Positions 53,787-64,000 of a DNA stretch of 64,000 nucleotides are shown here, one piece after another; the first letter of the stretch is position 1, and each line of letters starts with the position of its first letter. A program made the position numbers and the translations under genes. Origin of the DNA: an uncultured Gemmatimonadales bacterium (GTDB lineage Bacteria > Gemmatimonadota > Gemmatimonadetes > Longimicrobiales > RSA9). The DNA lies in the NCBI GenBank assembly GCA_963708135.1, contig OY970192.1, forward strand, positions 4,320,001-4,384,000. The letters are read 5' to 3'. Under the pieces are notes generated by a model. It was not told the origin of the DNA. It worked only from the letters and a program-made list of their open reading frames with translations, and did not search any database.

Positions 53787-56700
53787 ATGCGCCTTTCCGC
53801 CCTCCTGCTCCTGCCTCTCGCCCTCGCCCCGCTGAACCGTCCGTCTCGCGCAGCCTACCCGGGGACCGCCCTCGGCCCGGCGGGCGCCCGTGCACCAGCG
53901 GCCGCCTCGGATCTCGGCTACTACCGGTTCCCGACCCTGCGCGGGAACACGATCGTCTTCACGGCCGAGGGCGACCTGTGGACGGTGCCGGCCAGCGGCG
54001 GCGAGGCCCGTCGCCTGACCACGCACCTGGCCGAAGAGACGCACCCGGCGATCTCGCCGGATGGCCGCACGCTGGCCTTCACGGCCGGCTACGACGGCCC
54101 CGCCGAGGTCTACACGATGCCGATCGAGGGCGGCGTGCCGACGCGGCATACGTGGGACGGCCTGCCCGGCACCAGGGGCGATCTCGTGCTCGGGTGGACG
54201 ACGGACGGGCGGATCCTCTATTCCACGACGCGCTACTCCACTTTGCCGGAGACGCAGCTGGCGACGCTGGACCCCTCGACCGGCCGGCGCAGCCTCGTCC
54301 CGCTCGCGCAGGCCTCGGACGGGGCGTGGGAGGACGCTACCGGCGCGCTCTACTTCACCCGCTTCGCGAAGCAGTCGAGCAATACGCGCGACTATCGTGG
54401 GGGTACGGCGCAGGGCATCTGGGTGTACGGCGGGGGTGGGGGGGTGAAGGCGGCGCGGGGGGAGGGGGAGGGTACGGGTAAGGGTACGGGTAAGGGTGAG
54501 GGCCCGGCGTGGGATGGCATGGAGGCGGTGGGGCTGACGGGGGACTACCCGGGCACATCGAAGACGCCAATGCCGTGGGGCGGCAGGATCTACTTCGCGT
54601 CGGACCGCGATGGGGTGATGAACCTGTGGTCGATGGACCGGGAGGGGAAGGACCTGAAGCAGCTGACGCACCACGAGGACTTCGAGGTGCAGTGGCCCGC
54701 GATGGACGACGGACGGATCGTCTACCAGGATGGGGCGGACCTGTGGCTGCTGGACGTGCGGAGCGGGCAGGATAGGAAGCTGGACATCCGGCTGCCGTCG
54801 GACTTCGACCAGCTCCGGGCGCGGCGGGTCGAGAAGCCGATGGAGTGGCTGACGTCGGCGCACCTCTCGCCGCACGGCAACCGGGTCGTGCTCACGGCAC
54901 GGGGCCAGGTCTTCGTGACGCCCGCGAAGGCGGGGCAGGGGCGGCTGGTCGAGGCCACGCGCGGGCAGGACGTGCGCTACCGCGACGCGCGCTTCCTGCC
55001 GGACGGCGGCTCGCTGCTGACGCTCTCGGACGAGAGCGGCGAGGTGGAGCTGTGGCGGCTGCCGGCGGACGGCGTGGGCGGGCGGGAGCAGCTCACGACG
55101 GACGGTACGATCCTGCGCTGGGAGGCGGTGCCGAGCCCGGATGGCAGGTGGATCGCGCACACGGACAAGGACCAGCGGCTGTGGGTGCTGGACGCGGCCG
55201 CGAAGACCAGCCGGAAGGTAGCGGAGAGCGCGTACGACGACTTCCGCGATCTGGCCTGGAGCCCCGACTCGCGCTGGCTGGCGTACGTCGAGGCGGGCGC
55301 GAACCAGCTCCGCCGGGTCGTGCTGTACGACACGAAGACGCAGGCGACGACGCCCGTCACCACCGACCGCTATTCCTCGTTCTCGCCGGTCTGGTCGCCG
55401 GACGGGAAATGGCTGTGGCTGCTGTCCGACAGGACCTTCGATTCCGCCGTGGGCTCCCCGTGGGGTGCGTACCAGCCCGAGCCGTTCTTCGACGAGCGTA
55501 CGAAGGTGTACGCCCTCGCGCTGGAGCCGGATGAGACGTTCCCGATGGCGCCCCGCACCGAGCTGATGGCCCGGCCAGCCGCCGCCGATGCGAATCCGGC
55601 GCGCAGCGCGGAGTCCGAATCCGGCGGCTCGGGGCGGGCTGCGGCGAAGAGGGCGGAGGGGCGCGGAGGGTCCGCCGCGGCCGCGTCGCCGAAGGCGGTC
55701 GCGATCCGGCTCGCGGGGCTCGCCGGCCGGCTCTACGAGGCGCCGATCCCGGCGGGCGACTACCGGGACCTGTCGGTGGACGGCGCCGGCAAGCATCTGC
55801 TGGCGCTCGGCGGGAAGGCGGGAGCGCGTACGGCTGACCTCGTCGCCTGGGAGATCTCCCCCGAGAAGCCGAAGCCGAAGACGCTGGCGGAAGGGGTGCG
55901 CGGCTACGAGCTCTCGGCGGACGGCCGGAAGGTGCTGGTGCGGAAGGGGGACGCGCTCTACGTCGTCGCCTCGGACGGGAAGGAGAAGCTGGAGGACGGC
56001 AAGGTGGACCTTTCGGGGTGGAGCTTCCGGCTCGACCCGCGCGAGGAGCTGCGGCAGATGTACGGCGAGGCGTGGCGCCTGGAGCGGGACTACTACTGGG
56101 ATCCGGCCATGCGCGGGCTGGACTGGAAGGCGATCCGGGCCAAGTACCGGCCGCTGGCGGAGCGCGCGACGGACCGCGAGGAACTCTCCGACGTGTTCAT
56201 GCAGATGATCGCCGAGCTCCGGACGCTGCACATGTTCGTCTACGGCGGCGACGTGCGGGAGGGCGAGCAGGTGCTGCCCGCCTCGCTGGGGGCGCGGCTC
56301 GAGCGCGACTCCGCGGCGGGCGGGTACCGTGTGGCCCACATCTACCGCGCGGACCCGGACCAGCCGGAGGATCTGGCGCCGCTGGCGCGGGCGGGCGTGG
56401 GCGTCCGGGAAGGCGATGTCATCACGGCCGTGAACGGGGTGGCGACGCTGTCGGTGCCGGACATCGGCGGATTGCTCGAGGACCAGGCGGGGAAGCAGGT
56501 GCTGCTGGAGGTTCGGCGGGGCACGGGCAGGGGCACGGGCACGGGGGAACTGCCGAAAGCGAAAGCGAAGGCGAAGGCGAAAGCGGGAACGGCTTCGGGA
56601 TTTCGGGTCGTGGTGGAGCCGATCACGCCGCGGGAGGAGGCGGATCTCCGGTACTCGGAGTGGGAGTACACGCGGCGGCTGGCGGTGGACAGCCTGGGTG

Positions 56701-57305
56701 GGGGGAAGCTCGGGTACGTGCATCTCAGGGCGATGGGGTCGTCCGACATCGCGGCGTGGTACCGGCAATTCTACCCGGTGTTCGACCGGGAGGGGCTGGT
56801 GATCGACGCGCGCAGCAACCGGGGCGGCAACATCGAGAGCTGGATCCTGGAGAAGCTGATGCGGAAGGCGTGGATGTACTGGCAGGGGCGGGTGGGGGCG
56901 CCGTACTGGAACATGCAGGATGCCTTCCGGGGGCCGGTGGTGGTGCTGGTGAACGAGAACACGGCGTCGGACGGCGAGCTGTTCGCGGCGGGGTTCCAGC
57001 GACTGGGGCTGGGGAAGGTGATCGGCACGCGCACGTGGGGCGGCGAGATCTGGCTGTCGTCGTCGAACGTGCTGGTGGACCGCGGCATCGCGACGGCGGC
57101 GGAGAACGGGGTGTACGGGCCGGACGGCGTGTGGCTCATCGAGGGCCACGGCGTGGACCCGGACATGGTGGTGGACGACCCGCCGGCGGCCACGTTCCAG
57201 GGCCGGGATGCGCAGCTGGACGCGGCGGTGAAGTACCTCGAGCAGCAGATCCGGGAGCACCCGCCCGTGGTGCCGAAGGCGCCGGCCCGGCCGCCGGTGC
57301 ACTGA
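53787..57305 (+). CDS. Tricorn-like S41 protease (beta-propellers, PDZ and S41 catalytic domain)
   Basis: GYYRFP, repeated SPDG blades, YRGG, GYVHLRAM, DARSNRGG, TASDGE, IGTRTWGG and EGHGVDPD; signal peptide. Confidence 0.95.
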   Translation: MRLSALLLLPLALAPLNRPSRAAYPGTALGPAGARAPAAASDLGYYRFPTLRGNTIVFTAEGDLWTVPASGGEARRLTTHLAEETHPAISPDGRTLAFTAGYDGPAEVYTMPIEGGVPTRHTWDGLPGTRGDLVLGWTTDGRILYSTTRYSTLPETQLATLDPSTGRRSLVPLAQASDGAWEDATGALYFTRFAKQSSNTRDYRGGTAQGIWVYGGGGGVKAARGEGEGTGKGTGKGEGPAWDGMEAVGLTGDYPGTSKTPMPWGGRIYFASDRDGVMNLWSMDREGKDLKQLTHHEDFEVQWPAMDDGRIVYQDGADLWLLDVRSGQDRKLDIRLPSDFDQLRARRVEKPMEWLTSAHLSPHGNRVVLTARGQVFVTPAKAGQGRLVEATRGQDVRYRDARFLPDGGSLLTLSDESGEVELWRLPADGVGGREQLTTDGTILRWEAVPSPDGRWIAHTDKDQRLWVLDAAAKTSRKVAESAYDDFRDLAWSPDSRWLAYVEAGANQLRRVVLYDTKTQATTPVTTDRYSSFSPVWSPDGKWLWLLSDRTFDSAVGSPWGAYQPEPFFDERTKVYALALEPDETFPMAPRTELMARPAAADANPARSAESESGGSGRAAAKRAEGRGGSAAAASPKAVAIRLAGLAGRLYEAPIPAGDYRDLSVDGAGKHLLALGGKAGARTADLVAWEISPEKPKPKTLAEGVRGYELSADGRKVLVRKGDALYVVASDGKEKLEDGKVDLSGWSFRLDPREELRQMYGEAWRLERDYYWDPAMRGLDWKAIRAKYRPLAERATDREELSDVFMQMIAELRTLHMFVYGGDVREGEQVLPASLGARLERDSAAGGYRVAHIYRADPDQPEDLAPLARAGVGVREGDVITAVNGVATLSVPDIGGLLEDQAGKQVLLEVRRGTGRGTGTGELPKAKAKAKAKAGTASGFRVVVEPITPREEADLRYSEWEYTRRLAVDSLGGGKLGYVHLRAMGSSDIAAWYRQFYPVFDREGLVIDARSNRGGNIESWILEKLMRKAWMYWQGRVGAPYWNMQDAFRGPVVVLVNENTASDGELFAAGFQRLGLGKVIGTRTWGGEIWLSSSNVLVDRGIATAAENGVYGPDGVWLIEGHGVDPDMVVDDPPAATFQGRDAQLDAAVKYLEQQIREHPPVVPKAPARPPVH

Positions 57306-57336: not shown

Positions 57337-57714
57337 TCACGGCGCGCCGGAGTCGCGCCGCCAGATCCAGACCGCTTCGCGGCGCAGCGTCGCGGCGAAC
57401 CGGGTAGCAGCCTCGGTCAATTTCGTCCACTCCGCCGCCTCGTAGACGAGAACGTCGGCGGGGACGGGAAGCGAGGACAGGTCCCAGTCGCGGCCGCGCT
57501 CCACGAACGGACGTGCGGCGCGGCCCACGAGCAGCACGACATCCGCATCGCTGCCGACGCCCCAGTTCCCTCGCGCATAGGAGCCGAACAGCCCGACCGC
57601 GAGCAGCTCCGGGTGCGCCGCGCCGGCGCGCTCGGCCCAGGCCTCGAGCGACCGCCGCACAGATGCGGCGTCAGGCCACCTGATTACGGACGAATTCAAT
57701 GATCTCACGGGCAT
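57337..57714 (-). CDS. Minimal nucleotidyltransferase (MNT), putative antitoxin
   Basis: GLFGSYARG...SDADV (GS-x10-DxD) and PADVLVY. Confidence 0.88.
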   Translation of the reverse strand: MPVRSLNSSVIRWPDAASVRRSLEAWAERAGAAHPELLAVGLFGSYARGNWGVGSDADVVLLVGRAARPFVERGRDWDLSSLPVPADVLVYEAAEWTKLTEAATRFAATLRREAVWIWRRDSGAP

Positions 57715-58057
57715 GGTCGATGGCCTGCTCGCTCTGCAGCGGTCCGTAATGCTCGAACGGCGCGCCTTCGGGGTGCCCGTTGGGATAGCGGGTGGGGATG
57801 TAGTAGGCGTCCAGGCCGCGGGCCTGCTCGATCAGGAGGGGCGGCACGGACACCGAGGAAGGCAGCTCCTCCAGGAGTCGCGCGACGGCGTGGCCCCAGG
57901 CCTCCTGTCCGAGCCGGAGGTGTAGCGACTTCACGGCCTTCTCCGCCGCCTGGTGCGCGGCGAAGCACGCCCACTCGTGCCGGTCCGCACCGCGCGCGTC
58001 CCGGGCCTGCTCGAGGTCCCGCTCACTCTGGCGAAACCAGTCGTTCCAGCGGTTCAT
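57671..58057 (-). CDS. HEPN domain protein, putative toxin
   Basis: WACFAAHQAAEKAVK, WGH and YIPTRYPNGH. Confidence 0.9.
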   Translation of the reverse strand: MNRWNDWFRQSERDLEQARDARGADRHEWACFAAHQAAEKAVKSLHLRLGQEAWGHAVARLLEELPSSVSVPPLLIEQARGLDAYYIPTRYPNGHPEGAPFEHYGPLQSEQAIDHAREIIEFVRNQVA

Positions 58058-58112: not shown

Positions 58113-61100
58113 TTATGGCTGCATGCTACGGCGGCCGGCGCGAGACGACAAGGAAGGGGTCTCGGCGGCGCGGGTGCGGAGCCGGCACGCGGGCGGCGGC
58201 AGGAGCTTGCCGGCGGGGACGGGATGCAGCCCGGCCTTCAGGAGAGCGGCGTTCAGATCGGGGATCTCGCGGTCGTTGAGCTCCTTCCACGCGTCCACGG
58301 CCCGGGCCAGCCGGCCGCACTCGTCGGTCCAGGCGGCGAGGCTGGGCTCGGTGGGCGCCATGTCGCCGTTGTCGAGGCCATCGAGCTGGCGGAGGATGGA
58401 GGCGTTGAGCTCGACGAAGTCGGGCGGCGGTGCCGGGCCGCCCCTCCTGCCGAAGGAGCCGCGCCCTCGCTCGCGGCTCCCCGCGAGCGAGTCGAGCGTC
58501 GCCTCGATGCGTTTCGCGGCCGCGGCGACGGCGGTCGATGAAGCCGTCCCGGCCACGGCCTGCTTCACGGCGGCGGCCAGCGCCGCGGCGCTCGCGTGGC
58601 CCTGCCAGGCTTCGGCCGCCCCGTCGTAGAGGGGCATCTGCAACGCGTGCTGGGCGCGCAGGTCCGCCAGCGAGGCGGGCGAGCGGGGGTCGCGGTTTAC
58701 GGTCAGCTTCTGCGTGTAGCTCTTCCCAGCCACCGTCAGCCGCAGCGTGTACTCGCCGGGGAGCGCGAGCGGGCCCTCCGGCGTTGCGGGGGTGAGGGCG
58801 GGGTTCGCGCTGATCGGGAACGAGTGGCGGAACGCCGGCGGCGCGTCGTAGCGCAGGTCCCAGTTGACGCGGTTCAGGCCGACCGCGGTCGGCATGGGGT
58901 GGGGCGTGGCCAGCCAGAAGCTCGGCTCGGGCGGCTCGGCGGCCTCGGCGATCGGCTGTGCGGGTGCGCTCGACAGGTGGCGCACGACACGGCCGTCGCC
59001 GTCCAGCACGTCCAGGCCGATGGCGCCCTGCGGCGCGGCGCCGAGCGAGTAGTAGATCAGCGCGCCGGGCGGCGGGTTGAGCGAGTGCGGCACCTCGGGC
59101 GGGAAGGGCGTGTCCTGGTTGACGTTGCGGCGCACGCGCACGGCGTCGCCGGGGGCGAACAGGTGCGCCGGCTTGGCGGCCAACTCGGGTGTGAGCTGCC
59201 GCAGTGGCGAGATGTCATCGAGGATCCAGATGCCGCGCCCGTAGGTGCCGACAATGAGGTCGTTGTCCTTGATCGCGGCGTCGCGGAACGAGGTGTTGGG
59301 CAGGTTCAGGGCGAGCGACTGCCAGTGGTCGCCGTCGTCGAACGACACGTACATCGAGCTCTCGGTGCCGGCGAAGAGCAGCCCCTTCCGCTCCGTGTCC
59401 TCGCGGATCACGCGGGCGAAGCTGCCGGACGGCTCGTCCGCGGGCAGGCCGTCCACGATCTTCGTCCAGGTCTTGCCGTAATCGCGCGTCCGGTAGAGGT
59501 ACGGCGCGTAGTCGGCCGCGCCGTGCGTGTCGATGGCGACGTAGGCCTCCGCGGGATCCTGGTGCGAGGCCTCGATGGCGGACACGTCGGACAGCGTCGA
59601 GTCGGGCAGAGCGGGGATGGAGACGTCCTCCCATGTCTTCCCCTCGTCCCGGGTCAGCTTGATGAGGCCGTTGTTGGTGCCGACCCAGATGAGGCCGCGG
59701 GCGATAGTGGACGGCGAGATCGCCTCGATGGCGCCGGCCCGCCCGCCGCCGGTGAGGCGGCCGCCTCCGTTCTCCGCCTCGGGCTTCACGCCGCGGGGGT
59801 AGCCGAGATCGGGGCTCAGGCGGGTCCAGTGCATACCGCCGTCCGTCGTCGCCATGAGGTACTGGAAGCCGGCGAAGAGCTCGTGCGGGTTCCATGGCGC
59901 CCAGACGAGCGGGTTGGTGGACGTGGCGCGCAGGTGCAGCGCGGGATCCACGGCCGGGCTCACGTTCACGGTCTGCTCGCTCGGGTAGCTGATGCGCAGG
60001 ATGCCGCCGCCGCTGGCGTAGACCATGTCGGGGTTCTGCGGGTCCGGCGCGATGCTGCCCCACTCCCAGCCGCCGACGGGGTTCCAGTCGAGCGGCGTGA
60101 TCTCGCCGAAGTTGCCGCGGCTGCGCACGCGGATGGCGCCGGCGTCCTGCTGCGGCGCGTAGACCCAGTAGGGGAAGGAGTTGTCGGTCGAGATGTGGTA
60201 GACCTGCTCGGTGGACTGGTTGTACCAGGGGCTCCACGTGCGGCCGCCGTCGAGGCTGACCGTGGCGCCCTGGTCCATCCCCATGAAGATGCGCTGGGCG
60301 TTGGTCGGGTCGATCCAGAGCTGCTGCGGGTCATCACCGCCGGGAGCGCCCTTGAAGCCTGTGAAGGTCTGCCCGCCGTCCGTCGAGACGTAGCTCGAGG
60401 TGTTGAAGGTGTAGACGATGTCCGGGTTTTCGGAGCTCACGTAGACACCGCAGTTGTAGCCGCCCTGGCCGTTGCGGATGCGCGCGTCGGAGGCGTCCAT
60501 CCGTCGCCAGGTCGTGCCGCCATCATCGGACCGGTAGAGCCCGAACTCGCCGATGAGGTAGACGCGCTGCGCGTTGGTGTGCATGGCGACGGCGACGGCC
60601 GTGCGTCCCTCGAGCTTCGGCAGCCCGCCGCCCGCGATCTCGCGCCAGGTGACGCCCGCATCCGTCGACTTGAAGAGGTGTGTGCCGGTGGGCGCGCCGA
60701 AGTAGAAGCCGCGCCGGCGCGAGCCGCCAGGCTCGTTGTAGTGGCGCACGGTGGTGGCGAAGACGACATCCGGGCGGTCGTAGGCGCGGGCGAGCTTCTG
60801 GATGCCGGTCGAGTCGTTCACGAAGAGCGTCTTCGTCCACGTCCTGCCGCCGTCCGTGGAGCGGAACACACCGCGCGCGTCGCTCTTGTGGTGCATGTCG
60901 CCCTGCGCGGCGACGAGGACCACGCCGGGGTTCGAGGGGTCCACGAGGATCGAGGGGATCTGCTTCGTCGCCTCGAGCCCGATGTGCGTCCACGTGCGGC
61001 CGGCGTCCGCGGACCGGTAGACGCCGTCGCCCTCGTTGATCGAGCCGCCCGTGACCATGTCGCCGGTAGCGACGTAGACCACGTTCGGATCCGACGGCGC

Positions 61101-61517
61101 CACCTCGATTGCCCCCACGGAGGACACGCTCCTCACGGAGTCGAAGACGGGCTCCCACGTGATGCCGGCGTTCTCCGTCTTCCAGACGCCGCCCGCCGGC
61201 AGTCCCGCGTAGAAGACGCCCGGCTGCCCGACGGCGCCGGTCACGGCGGCGATGCGGCCGGCGCGCAGCGGCCCGATGTTGCGCCAGACGAGGCCGGCGA
61301 GGAGTTCGGCGGGAAGGGGCGGGCCGACGGTCGCGCCGGTGGGGTCCGGATGGATCGGCCGCGCGGGGGCGGCGCCGGCGCGCGGATCGACGGAGTGCAT
61401 GGCGGGGGCGTCGGCGACGCGCGGCTGGACGGGTCGCGTGGCGCCGAGTGTCAGGAGGGAGGCGGCGGCCAGGCCCACGGCGAGGGCCGGCCGGCGCGGG
61501 GAGTCGGGCAGCATCAT
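58113..61517 (-). CDS. VPS10/sortilin-like BNR (Asp-box) repeat protein, glycosyl-hydrolase-like
   Basis: WRNIGP..GR, many SxDxGxTW Asp-boxes, GDD, GTYGRGIWILD and VNWDLRY; signal peptide. Confidence 0.9.
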   Translation of the reverse strand: MMLPDSPRRPALAVGLAAASLLTLGATRPVQPRVADAPAMHSVDPRAGAAPARPIHPDPTGATVGPPLPAELLAGLVWRNIGPLRAGRIAAVTGAVGQPGVFYAGLPAGGVWKTENAGITWEPVFDSVRSVSSVGAIEVAPSDPNVVYVATGDMVTGGSINEGDGVYRSADAGRTWTHIGLEATKQIPSILVDPSNPGVVLVAAQGDMHHKSDARGVFRSTDGGRTWTKTLFVNDSTGIQKLARAYDRPDVVFATTVRHYNEPGGSRRRGFYFGAPTGTHLFKSTDAGVTWREIAGGGLPKLEGRTAVAVAMHTNAQRVYLIGEFGLYRSDDGGTTWRRMDASDARIRNGQGGYNCGVYVSSENPDIVYTFNTSSYVSTDGGQTFTGFKGAPGGDDPQQLWIDPTNAQRIFMGMDQGATVSLDGGRTWSPWYNQSTEQVYHISTDNSFPYWVYAPQQDAGAIRVRSRGNFGEITPLDWNPVGGWEWGSIAPDPQNPDMVYASGGGILRISYPSEQTVNVSPAVDPALHLRATSTNPLVWAPWNPHELFAGFQYLMATTDGGMHWTRLSPDLGYPRGVKPEAENGGGRLTGGGRAGAIEAISPSTIARGLIWVGTNNGLIKLTRDEGKTWEDVSIPALPDSTLSDVSAIEASHQDPAEAYVAIDTHGAADYAPYLYRTRDYGKTWTKIVDGLPADEPSGSFARVIREDTERKGLLFAGTESSMYVSFDDGDHWQSLALNLPNTSFRDAAIKDNDLIVGTYGRGIWILDDISPLRQLTPELAAKPAHLFAPGDAVRVRRNVNQDTPFPPEVPHSLNPPPGALIYYSLGAAPQGAIGLDVLDGDGRVVRHLSSAPAQPIAEAAEPPEPSFWLATPHPMPTAVGLNRVNWDLRYDAPPAFRHSFPISANPALTPATPEGPLALPGEYTLRLTVAGKSYTQKLTVNRDPRSPASLADLRAQHALQMPLYDGAAEAWQGHASAAALAAAVKQAVAGTASSTAVAAAAKRIEATLDSLAGSRERGRGSFGRRGGPAPPPDFVELNASILRQLDGLDNGDMAPTEPSLAAWTDECGRLARAVDAWKELNDREIPDLNAALLKAGLHPVPAGKLLPPPACRLRTRAAETPSLSSRAGRRSMQP

Positions 61518-61767
61518 CGTGCTCGCTTCTGCGGGGACCTGGTGGACCGGGCCAGAATAGCGGGAACGCATCCGGCCCGACAGAGACGCAGAGTGAGCTA
61601 CGTCGGGCGCGGCGCCGCGGTTGGGGGCCGCGCGGCAATGCCATGCAGCCCACGGACTTCCTTGACCGTCTCTTGCGGCCGGCCTTACACTCGCTCCGTC
61701 CGTGCAGCACCCCACCGATCGTTCGAGCGGACCCGCTCGGCTGGACCCCCCAACCCGGAGGAGCCCG

Positions 61768-62154
61768 ATGTCGGTCGAACGTACCAGGAAAGTGCTGGAA
61801 TCGTACTGGCGCGAGCACGACCCAAGCCACGTCGCGGAGGACGCCGTCTTCGTCATGCAGCCGACGGGCGAGGAGATCCGCGGCCGGCAGGCGATCGCCG
61901 AACACCTCGACGCCTTCTACCACATCACGCTCGATGCCCACGCGGAGGTCGTGAACTCGGTCTTCGCCGACGGCAAGGGCGTGCTCGAGGCGGTCGTGGT
62001 CGGCAAGCACACCGGCGCCTTCGCCGGGATCCCGGGCACCGGCCGGGACGTGCGCGTCCCGCTCTGCGTCTGCTACGACGTGGACGGCGACCTGATCCGG
62101 CGGGCGCGCATCTACCTCATGGCGAACGTGCTGATCCAGCAGATTTCGGGGTGA
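61768..62154 (+). CDS. SnoaL-like / ester cyclase (NTF2-like) protein
   Basis: GGAGGAG RBS; GRQAI, GKHTGAFAGIPGTGR and GDLIRRARIY. Confidence 0.85.
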   Translation: MSVERTRKVLESYWREHDPSHVAEDAVFVMQPTGEEIRGRQAIAEHLDAFYHITLDAHAEVVNSVFADGKGVLEAVVVGKHTGAFAGIPGTGRDVRVPLCVCYDVDGDLIRRARIYLMANVLIQQISG

Positions 62155-62287
62155 GGCGCCCGCCGGAACCGCGCCGCCCGGCCGGGCGGCGCAGGGGTAC
62201 CGGATGTCGGGAGTTCCGGAAGACCCGCGTATGTAGGATGAGGAGGGATCACCCCGATCCTGCCGGTCCTCTACGTGGAGGTGGGCA

Positions 62288-62671
62288 ATGCGACGCGTCA
62301 CGTCTTGGGTGCTACTGGGTGGCGCGGCCTGGGTCCTGGCCGCGTGCTCCGGCGACGCGGTGACGGCACCCACGGGCGCCAGCTCACGGATAGCGGCCTC
62401 CCAGGTCGCCGGACAGGCCGCTCCGCTACCCCAGGGGAGCTGCCAGTACTCGGACCCCGGTACGGGAACCTACCCGGTGGTCGTGTCGTGGTCCGGAATG
62501 AAGGTGACTCGAATCGATGTGTTCGACGGCGCGGGCAACCCCCTCTCGCAGACGGTGCTGGGGCATTCCGGGCGGAAGGGATCGCTGTCCCTGACCGAGA
62601 ACGGCCAGCCGGCGACTGCGGAGATCTTCGGCACGACCATCGGGCTGAAGGTACTCTGCTCGGCGGGCTGA
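62288..62671 (+). CDS. Hypothetical lipoprotein
   Basis: Lipobox LAAC followed by SGDAVTAP; GGAGG RBS; two further Cys. Confidence 0.7.
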   Translation: MRRVTSWVLLGGAAWVLAACSGDAVTAPTGASSRIAASQVAGQAAPLPQGSCQYSDPGTGTYPVVVSWSGMKVTRIDVFDGAGNPLSQTVLGHSGRKGSLSLTENGQPATAEIFGTTIGLKVLCSAG

Positions 62672-62867
62672 GCCGCGGCGTCGGCGCGATCACTCGAGGC
62701 CTCCCGGCACCACGAGTGTCGTGGGGGCTTCGGCGGCCGGCCGGATCCGGCCGGCCGTGAGCGAGATCGTGCACCCGGGCGCAGGGGACGCCGAGGTGGG
62801 CTGGACCACGGGCGGGCGCCGCGCTATATTACCGCTCAGTTGATCTATTGCGGAAGGAGCGGCGCGG

Positions 62868-63083
62868 ATGCCGATGTACGACTACGAGTGCCTGGCGTGC
62901 GGGCACCGTTACGAGGAGTTGCGTCGGATGGCGGAGCGGCAGGCGGCGAGGCCGTGTCCGTCGTGCGGGAGCGTGGAGACGGAGCTGGCGGTTTCGGCGC
63001 CGGCGGTGTTCGGCGGTGGGGGTGCGCCGCTGAACTACGGCTCATCGGGGAACTGCTTCAGCGGTGGCTGAGGCATCGGCTGA
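62868..63083 (+). CDS. FmdB family zinc-ribbon protein; ends at 63071 if UGA is a stop, or at 63083 if UGA encodes selenocysteine
   Basis: MPMYDYECLACG and CPSCGS; AAGGAG RBS; tail NCFSGG-UGA-GIG-UGA followed by a SECIS-like hairpin. Confidence 0.9.
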
Positions 63084-63101
63084 GCCGCCGGTCGGCGGCA
63101 G
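63072..63101 (+). promoter_or_regulatory. Putative bacterial SECIS hairpin
   Basis: Stem GCCGCC/GGCGGC with loop GGUC starting 18 nt after the UGA at 63069-63071. Confidence 0.55.
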
Positions 63102-63436
63102 GAGCAGTTGCGGCGCGCGCCGGTCCGTGATGGGCCGGCGCGCGGTGCATCTGGGGGTGAGGGATCGGGCAGCGGGAGGGGGTCGGAAGACGGGCAGAGC
63201 GAGGCATGGAGGAGGGGCACGGGGACGGGAACGAGCAGGGGCACGGGGCCGGGAAGGGATACACGGGCGTTGTGGGGGCGTGGCGGTGGCGGGTAGCTTC
63301 GAGGATGTGCGAGGGCCGGAGCCGGGTTGCGGCCGTGGCGAGGCCGGGGCCGATCGGGCCATGGCAGTGCCCCGGCCGGCGGTGTAACGAAAGGACGCGG
63401 GAGGCAAAGGTGACGAACCGCGAGGGAGAGGCCCCC

Positions 63437-64000
63437 ATGTCCACGCAGCCGCGGCGGCGGTTGAGGCCGGAAGAGTACCTGGAGGCGGAGCGCCGCGCGG
63501 AGCGGAAGAGCGAGTACTACGCGGGCGAGGTGTTCGCGCTGGCCGGGGCGAGCCGGGAGCACAACCTGCTCGTGACGAACCTGGTGGCCGGCCTGGCCAC
63601 GCGGCTCCGGGGCGGTCCGTGCGAGGTGTATCCGAGCGACATGCGGGTGAAGGTCCGGGCGAGCGGGTTGTACACCTACCCGGATGTCACGGTGGTCTGC
63701 GGCGAGCCGGAGCTAGAGGACGAGCATCTGGATACGCTGTTGAACCCGACGCTGCTGATCGAGGTCCTGTCTGCCTCGACCGAGCGACACGATCGCGGCT
63801 TCAAGGCGGACCATTACCGGCGGCTGGAAACGCTGCGGGAGTATCTGCTGGTCCCGCAGGAGGAGCCCCGGATCGAGCGTTACCGCCGGCGCGGCGAGCG
63901 CGAGTGGCTCCTGACGGAATTCCGGGGCCTCGAGGGCGTGATCGAGCTGGACTCCGTCGGCTGCTCGCTCGAGGCGGCGGAGGTGTTCGAGAGGGTGTTC
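63437..64000 (+). CDS. Uma2 family PD-(D/E)xK endonuclease, 3'-truncated by the window edge (absent from the ORF track)
   Basis: Manual translation: EEYLEAER..KSEYYAGEVFALAGASREHN, SDMRV, YPDVTVVCG, IEVLSAST..DRG.K and EYLLV; GGGAGAGG RBS. Confidence 0.92.
   Translation, partial: MSTQPRRRLRPEEYLEAERRAERKSEYYAGEVFALAGASREHNLLVTNLVAGLATRLRGGPCEVYPSDMRVKVRASGLYTYPDVTVVCGEPELEDEHLDTLLNPTLLIEVLSASTERHDRGFKADHYRRLETLREYLLVPQEEPRIERYRRRGEREWLLTEFRGLEGVIELDSVGCSLEAAEVFERVF

Follow-up and report, generated by a model that had tools for sequence, protein, structure and literature searches.

A predicted selenocysteine near the C-terminus of an FmdB-family zinc-ribbon protein and of its abruptly ending relatives

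A short gene with two TGA codons and a hairpin

Does the first in-frame TGA of a small FmdB-family gene end the protein, or is it read as selenocysteine (Sec)? This question is raised by a locus close to the end of the window, the whole stretch of 64,000 nucleotides that was analysed, from an uncultured Gemmatimonadales bacterium. The open reading frame (ORF) starts with ATG at 62868 and runs for 67 codons (MPMYDYECLACGH...CPSCG...SSGNCFSGG) to a TGA. The original prediction had given the frame as ...NCFSGG-TGA-GGC-ATC-GGC-TGA, and the same letters are read at 62868-63083. The features of the gene are as follows.

62802..62830, forward strand: sigma-70-like promoter candidate, TGGACC-17-TATATT (consensus match only)
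62854..62859, forward strand: Shine-Dalgarno-like AAGGAG, 8 nt 5' of the ATG, as read in the sequence
62868..63083, forward strand: full predicted gene, 71 aa with predicted Sec68 (67 aa if ended at the first TGA)
62868..62981, forward strand: FmdB-type zinc ribbon, CxxC (Cys8, Cys11)...CxxC (Cys30, Cys33), PF09723 and TIGR02605 above cut-off
63054..63056, forward strand: tail Cys63, likely partner of Sec; tail Cys column at least 90% conserved in alignment A4, spacing to the TGA variable
63069..63071, forward strand: in-frame TGA, predicted selenocysteine codon; TGA in 13 of 13 close relatives and in 62 of 62 abrupt-ending FmdB genes listed
63072..63080, forward strand: Gly-Ile-Gly codons (GGC ATC GGC) after the predicted Sec; [GRS][IV][GSA] in relatives, with synonymous and conservative changes
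63081..63083, forward strand: predicted true stop codon TGA; second stop shifted in relative G013 and mixed in the wide set
63084..63099, forward strand: bacterial SECIS-like hairpin in the 3' UTR, GCCGCC stem and GGUC loop, 18 nt past the predicted Sec codon

The ORF scores 60.1 bits with TIGR02605 (cut-off 31.3) and 52 bits with PF09723 (cut-off 34.4). Cys8, 11, 30 and 33 are invariant in 133 aligned FmdB sequences, and the four-Cys ribbon is, judging from this motif only, a putative zinc-binding site. The promoter candidate matches 9 of 12 consensus positions and is the sole such site in 62200-63500 (0.0 in shuffles). In the same interval, 0 terminator-like sites were found by the search for intrinsic terminators, and no U-tract follows the hairpin.

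The arms of the hairpin are GCCGCC (63084-63089) and GGCGGC (63094-63099), forming 6 bp around the loop GGTC (63090-63093), in agreement with the 6-bp hairpin and the GGUC loop opening 18 nt after the first UGA that had been proposed. The distance from UGA to the apical loop of bacterial SECIS elements is 16-37 nt (PMC10778597), and a figure legend gives a conserved G in the loop (PMC2398784). The 18-nt distance and the early loop G (GGUC) of this locus fall inside these published criteria. The folding energy gives a mixed picture: the hairpin alone has -13.2 kcal/mol (z -3.45), and within 34-62 nt of context the z value is -0.68 to +0.80 (-1.53 at 42 nt), which is ordinary for DNA of 72% GC. 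In the host genome, a comparable hairpin follows 37 of the 1737 TGA-ended ORFs (crude ORF set, at least 100 aa), and a comparable hairpin together with a second stop within 5 codons was found for 2 of the 1737 in this crude set.

One alternative is that translation truly ends at the first TGA, with the hairpin acting as a 3' structure that stabilises the mRNA or causes pausing and with the extra codons present by accident. With 1737 of 2482 ORFs in the crude set, TGA is the most frequent stop of the host, and the hairpin is unremarkable in its longer contexts, both of which speak for this explanation; the absence of a U-tract and the codon-like variation in the three added codons speak against it. 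The single locus is suggestive alone; it is the conservation across relatives that lifts the arrangement above chance.

Endings and hairpins across the FmdB family

In all 17 close homologs from the databases (69-79% identity), the very last residues are NCFSGG. For the DNA level, 61 and 73 genomes of the host's taxonomic family were searched and all 5 metagenome contigs returned were taken, which gave a close set of 13 including this gene (8 family genomes and 5 metagenome contigs). Every member (13 of 13) has the TGA, two or three further codons, a second TGA and a hairpin whose loop lies at 18-20 nt, so the alignment of homologs that the original prediction had called for shows TGA, short extension and hairpin kept throughout, with TAA or TAG at the first stop in none of the 13. 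Sequence identity drops immediately past the hairpin. The second stop of G013 lies one codon further upstream, with the distance from the hairpin to the first TGA unchanged, indicating that the hairpin is tied to the first TGA. The six stem pairs hold in all 78 cells of the 13 relatives. The stem is near invariant: a two-sided change occurs in one of the six pairs, which is equalled by 40 of 500 shuffles, and covariation is therefore weak among close kin.

A further family genome (G004) carries the form GFT-TGA-AA-stop, also with a hairpin. In a sample of 400 genomes of the phylum, no further TGA case was found at E <= 1e-12, with 14 candidates scored per genome, and this sample has little bearing on spread. 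A read-through alignment search of genome contigs gave no match, the reason being that its patterns required a Cys codon at the TGA position. In addition, contigs from RNA libraries (4 runs of 3 studies) contain tail-plus-hairpin segments (63038-63099) of relatives, several with 0-2 differences, and one of them lacks a base at 63082. They were set aside as expression evidence for this gene, being relatives' contigs with a small word share.

Of the best 150 FmdB representatives of a profile search, 83 end abruptly at F[TSGR], GG or G[TS]. The ending rule (F[TSG], GG or G[TS], less than 82 aa) was fixed from protein ends before the DNA was scanned. GTDB contigs were then scanned with a pattern that allowed TAA, TAG, TGA or TGG, which yielded at least 120 loci, a sample shaped by the pattern. 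Among the loci listed there are 121 FmdB ORFs. The 62 with the abrupt end have TGA as their stop without exception; in the remaining 59 the stop is TGA (27), TAA (19) or TAG (13). After the TGA, the 62 abrupt loci listed continue for 1-11 codons (one or two in 46 of 62), the first of which is Ala or Gly in 53, and then stop at TGA (32), TAA (17) or TAG (13). The GC content of these listed loci is 35-72%, and this range together with the mixed second stops argues that 62 of 62 TGA is not a stop-codon bias. Seven more TGA-ended ORFs among those listed end with PVG, GFR/PFR or NVT, outside the rule, and most of them look alike to the abrupt class.

Hairpins were scored by one rule (at least 5 pairs, a G early in a loop of 3-6 nt, 14-24 nt out). 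A matching hairpin follows 58 of the 62 abrupt loci listed, versus 15 of the 59 others and 12% of shuffles. The 58 listed hairpins have 45 different five-base 5' arms, cross-pairing between loci is 3%, and GT occurs in 49 of the 58 loops. A MAFFT alignment of distant hairpins is not structure-aware and was left out of the pair counts. Such fixed spacing and a GT-type loop in unrelated stems, and the contrast between uniform first stops and mixed second stops in the same listed loci, stand against the first TGA being a true stop.

By record title, the abrupt-end loci listed come from Desulfobacterota, Chloroflexota, Nitrospirota, Acidobacteriota, Aquificales, KSB1, Zixibacteria, Krumholzibacteria, Pirellulaceae, Leptospirales, Bacillota and Chthonomonadaceae, which we take to represent about 12 phyla.

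The position of the hairpin also deserves a comment. At this locus the SECIS-like element lies wholly beyond the predicted true stop and would thus escape any coding constraint. In the wide set, 47 of the 58 listed hairpins have a stem that begins at the true stop or beyond it, so these would be natural 3'-UTR SECIS elements, different from typical bacterial SECIS elements, most of which lie within the ORF (PMC10778597). The set (45 stems, GT-type loop) could serve as a library for SelB recognition free of coding constraint.

Selenocysteine machinery and its tie to the ending

The host genome (5.45 Mb, one contig, 97.65% complete) was searched for selA, selB, selC and selD, the check that had been suggested with the original prediction, and all four are present: SelA (E 1.6e-141), SelB, tRNA-Sec (selC; 69.7 bits) and a SelD gene with one in-frame TGA. 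The TGA of the host formate dehydrogenase (FdhA) is followed by a hairpin with a GGTCT loop that opens after the same 18 nt, while 15 nt separate the SelD TGA from a GCT loop. The hairpin of the FmdB gene thus resembles the formate dehydrogenase-type SECIS, whose loop also falls in the 16-37 nt range (PMC10778597), the FdhA loop being GGUCU in RNA.

Other in-frame TGA sites of the host contig (G000:C1) are located at 2907113-2908498 (reverse strand; formate dehydrogenase-type), 4174852-4175766 (reverse; SelD), 5310806 (reverse; ArsM-like) and 1016702 (forward; OsmC-like), the first two with hairpins. By the same hairpin rule, there is an element after the ArsM-like TGA and none after the OsmC-like TGA, indicating that the rule misses some candidates. 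On the same contig, 22 tRNA genes lie within less than 4 kb (5377229-5381066, reverse strand), as on integrated elements.

Could the UGA be read as another residue, namely Trp, Cys or Gly, by a suppressor or by hairpin-stimulated near-cognate decoding? A downstream hairpin can favour read-through in general. However, at the default threshold tRNA-Sec is the one tRNA of the host genome found to carry a TCA anticodon, TGA is the main host stop, and the ending tracks selA (below), so that we regard such decoding as extremely unlikely.

Within the host's taxonomic family, selA is present in 69 of 73 genomes, which is too uniform for a co-occurrence test. In the wide set, the search for selA covered the genome of every one of the 120 listed loci. 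Among the loci listed, selA was found for 57 of the 62 abrupt loci (61 genomes) versus 33 of the 57 other loci, kin not being independent in these counts. The five abrupt loci without a selA match come from assemblies whose completeness is not given: G569 and G480 contain selB, selC and selD with its TGA, G568 contains only selD with its TGA, in G566 just part of selD was detected, and all four sel genes are missing from G535. The other class includes 24 selA-negative genomes with 55 family matches. Of the 53 FmdB ORFs read from these, not one ends abruptly (0 of 53), and 24 of the 53 are the loci by which the selA-negative group was defined. A tRNA-Sec was detected in 2 of these 24 genomes.

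For a true stop at the first TGA, G535 with its missing sel genes is a favourable case, while 0 of 53 such ends in selA-negative genomes weighs against it, and together with the evidence from first stops, spacing and loops we judge that explanation very improbable. The preferred reading is selenocysteine insertion. With three codons, a second stop and a hairpin behind it, in a genome with selA, selB, selC and selD, the TGA is very likely a Sec codon, and judging from these sequence patterns the TGA of this FmdB gene is in all probability decoded as Sec, with the abrupt-end relatives sharing the hidden ending. The combined reading, an FmdB zinc ribbon with Sec insertion and a predicted 71 residues ending in ...NCFSGG-Sec-GIG, is very probable. 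The candidate hidden selenoprotein of the original prediction is thus supported by the machinery, by the conserved TGA, spacing and hairpin, and by the selA-linked endings.

The bacterial Sec pathway, in which SelB acts with Sec-tRNA, is well established (PMC9312934). At this locus, a ribosome positioned at the UGA would be served by SelB-GTP-Sec-tRNA bound to the apical GGUC loop, Sec would be inserted, and translation would end three codons after it.

Known systems, neighbourhoods and the possible role of the tail

The comparisons with published systems below follow the available portions of the cited papers. An FmdB selenoprotein (TIGR02605/COG2331) was described from two Global Ocean Sampling (GOS) reads with Sec at position 8 and/or 11, in the first zinc knuckle (PMC2398784), and reviews give the FmdB Sec motif as U/CxxU or UxxU, in that form only and with no accession (PMC9312934, PMC13188914). 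The earlier statement that the FmdB family has Sec-containing members is therefore correct for the family, but the published Sec lies in the first knuckle and not in the tail. The GOS protein and this one share the domain family and the prediction of Sec from an in-frame TGA with a bacterial SECIS. They differ in that the GOS reads have a tail of the FRL..GWYETD type, whereas the predicted Sec is here the fourth residue from the C-terminus; knuckle positions 8 and 11 are TGC at this locus, so the U/CxxU knuckle form is absent.

Two other families of small proteins are comparable. DUF466/KCU-star (NF033934, PMC4607533) also has Sec at the very end and a SECIS beyond the true stop, and its terminal Sec was overlooked because alignments stop short of the terminal U (PMC4607533). 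Its fold is unrelated, and it ends with CU-stop with CC-stop homologs, unlike the Cys-x4..9-U-x1..11 arrangement on a zinc ribbon found here. NF041197 (OS_HP3 / hypothetical protein DW) is likewise small, with two CxxC motifs and one predicted Sec (PMC13188914), but its motifs are RxU/GxU and it gives no match here, the best relative scoring 11.8 bits against a cut-off of 40. In NCBIfam 20.0, no selenoprotein model exceeds its cut-off for four read-through proteins. A RiPP or selenobacteriocin-like identity (SGUG motif, Table 1 of PMC13188914) was also considered and rejected, there being no NCBIfam match and no adjoining maturase.

The term "FmdB" is absent from the main texts, in the parts available, of deep-Sep (PMC12013277), Peng 2016 (PMC5029168), the Olavius study (PMC1976440) and BSepDB (PMC13326102), and the "FmdB" of PMC11227280 is formylmethanofuran dehydrogenase B, unrelated to the zinc-ribbon FmdB. 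A tail Sec in the FmdB family was not reported in the literature searched, on which other papers and supplements may bear. From the above, neither the domain family nor the recoding route is new, while the tail position of Sec and its spread seem absent from this literature. If Sec is inserted as predicted, a large share of the short FmdB proteins in public databases have lost their most reactive residue to truncation at the codon just before it; among the best 150 representatives, 83 would be affected, every such gene read in DNA stopping at TGA, and the selenoproteomes of Desulfobacterota, Chloroflexota, Nitrospirota, Acidobacteriota, the host's family and others would gain one member. Such a tail-Sec protein would be ill suited to detection by methods that align Cys with TGA. 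In BLASTP the alignment stops short of the tail, with no extension to a Cys homolog, and the F[ST]-TGA subtype has no counterpart with Cys among the best 150 representatives.

The C-x4-U motif of the original prediction needs a correction. Four residues separate the last tail Cys from the TGA in only 3 of the 62 listed abrupt loci, versus 5-9 residues in 51 of 62, and in 2 of 62 the tail lacks a Cys ahead of the TGA. Among the 13 close relatives, 6 have Trp at the Cys63 position and their Cys more to the N-terminal side, so C-x4-U is not a conserved motif. Tails of the form C-x3/4-C-G-[IVL]-stop, which when matched by eye put a Cys at the position of the predicted Sec, exist in 5 of the best 150 representatives and in loci L069/L074, and in sister FmdB proteins the corresponding place is taken by a Cys-rich tail (CCGGxC, CASGAC-GI). 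A host paralog with a Cys-rich tail (GCCGGACG) and a TAG end is located at G000:C1:4390947-4391168 (reverse strand), about 7 kb past the window end, and in G006 and in L077-L079 (three metagenome contigs) a paralog of this type lies directly downstream of the Sec-type gene. A third host FmdB, of a long-tailed type, is at 1880850-1880966 (reverse strand).

The structure model has low confidence (mean pLDDT 60), with strands at 3-8, 14-18 and 38-40 and a tail predicted to be disordered (pLDDT 41-51). Foldseek with this model gave nothing at E <= 0.001 and weak resemblance to HypA and rubredoxin, and a PDB sequence search returned generic zinc-finger matches only. A possible mechanism is that the four-Cys ribbon forms a structural Zn site and the Gly/Ser linker bears a mobile Cys...Sec arm. 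The arm would cycle between selenol/thiol and selenenylsulfide or persulfide states, which would make the protein a small relay, redox or sulfane-sulfur, whose partners are of the thioredoxin, OsmC or rhodanese type.

The neighbourhoods give uneven evidence on this mechanism. The neighbour scan covered 123 of 194 ORFs at 51 loci, 71 having been dropped by hand as more distant and likely antisense frames. Sulfur or redox genes are among the nearest neighbours at 13 of 37 wide Sec-type loci, a count that has no control set of non-Sec FmdB genes. These neighbours include OsmC (5 loci), CsoR-family repressors (4), rhodanese (3) and DUF302 (2), as well as thioredoxin with DsbD, TauE, SulP, DsrE and NifU, and 9 of the 13 loci belong to Chloroflexota. 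No sulfur or redox neighbour was found in the host's taxonomic family, where MacB/FtsX permeases occur instead, nor at this locus, which is flanked by SnoaL-like, hypothetical and Uma2 genes. The neighbours in the window are as follows.

53787-57305, forward strand: tricorn-type protease
57337-58057, reverse strand: HEPN gene overlapping a nucleotidyltransferase gene, a HEPN/MNT (type VII toxin-antitoxin-like) pair
58113-61856, reverse strand: Vps10/BNR-repeat protein
61702-62154, forward strand: SnoaL-like protein
62288-62671, forward strand: 127-aa ORF with no family match
63437-64000, forward strand: Uma2 protein

Because the neighbour evidence is Chloroflexota-heavy and lacking at this locus, we give a mobile Cys/Sec redox or sulfane-sulfur arm about an even chance, given that Sec is inserted. 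The recoding mechanism itself would be the standard one, and the function is hypothetical; if the sulfur or redox shuttle outlined below is real, it would provide the FmdB "regulatory" family with a chemical role that is testable.

With Sec inserted, the tail may alternatively be a ligand arm for soft metals or clusters (Cu, Hg, Ni, Zn, Fe-S), which would make the protein a metallochaperone or metal sensor. Paralogs with Cys-rich tails such as CCGGAC, the extra Cys after the TGA in 8 of the 62 listed Sec-type tails, neighbours including CsoR-family (4 loci), ArsR (2), NifB/NifX-type, NifU and MobA-like genes, and the weak modelled resemblance to HypA and rubredoxin would be consistent with this role. 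Most tails, however, have one Cys and one Sec with variable spacing, few ligands for a defined site, and the PF02583 family also includes persulfide sensors, which counts against it. We consider a metal arm possible but doubtful.

A broader version of the redox or sulfane-sulfur reading is that these proteins constitute an uncatalogued pan-bacterial selenoprotein subfamily, possibly among the commonest selenoproteins in anaerobes and soil bacteria, whose terminal Cys...Sec arm would shuttle sulfane sulfur, selenium or redox equivalents with rhodanese-, OsmC-, DsrE- or thioredoxin-type partners, the Cys-tailed paralogs being a selenium-free backup. As a whole, this proposal is speculative and rather less than probable.

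Partial decoding of the UGA would lead to a different role, in which a zinc-ribbon regulator or adaptor is switched according to selenium status by the ratio of 67-aa to 71-aa protein. Termination at the UGA would remove four residues only and leave the whole ribbon, so both forms could be stable, and the gene has its own promoter-like site. In several Desulfobacterota assemblies, FmdB genes, Cys-tailed ones being the case cited for this role, lie 1-4 kb from selA (L237-L239 in G494, G549 and G538), and FmdB is also near selA in G514, G530, G531, G562 and G497. But the FmdB genes beside selA that were read are not of the Sec type (3 of 3; two adjoin ispF), and the "regulatory" label of the FmdB family is annotation only, with no target or partner identified. 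Such a switch is improbable in our judgement.

One selA gene of this survey, L293:169-1533 (G546:C157:2068-3432, forward strand), has a single in-frame TGA. This codon lies in a variable segment, some 53 codons from where the match begins, and may be an assembly error, a nonsense allele or recoding.
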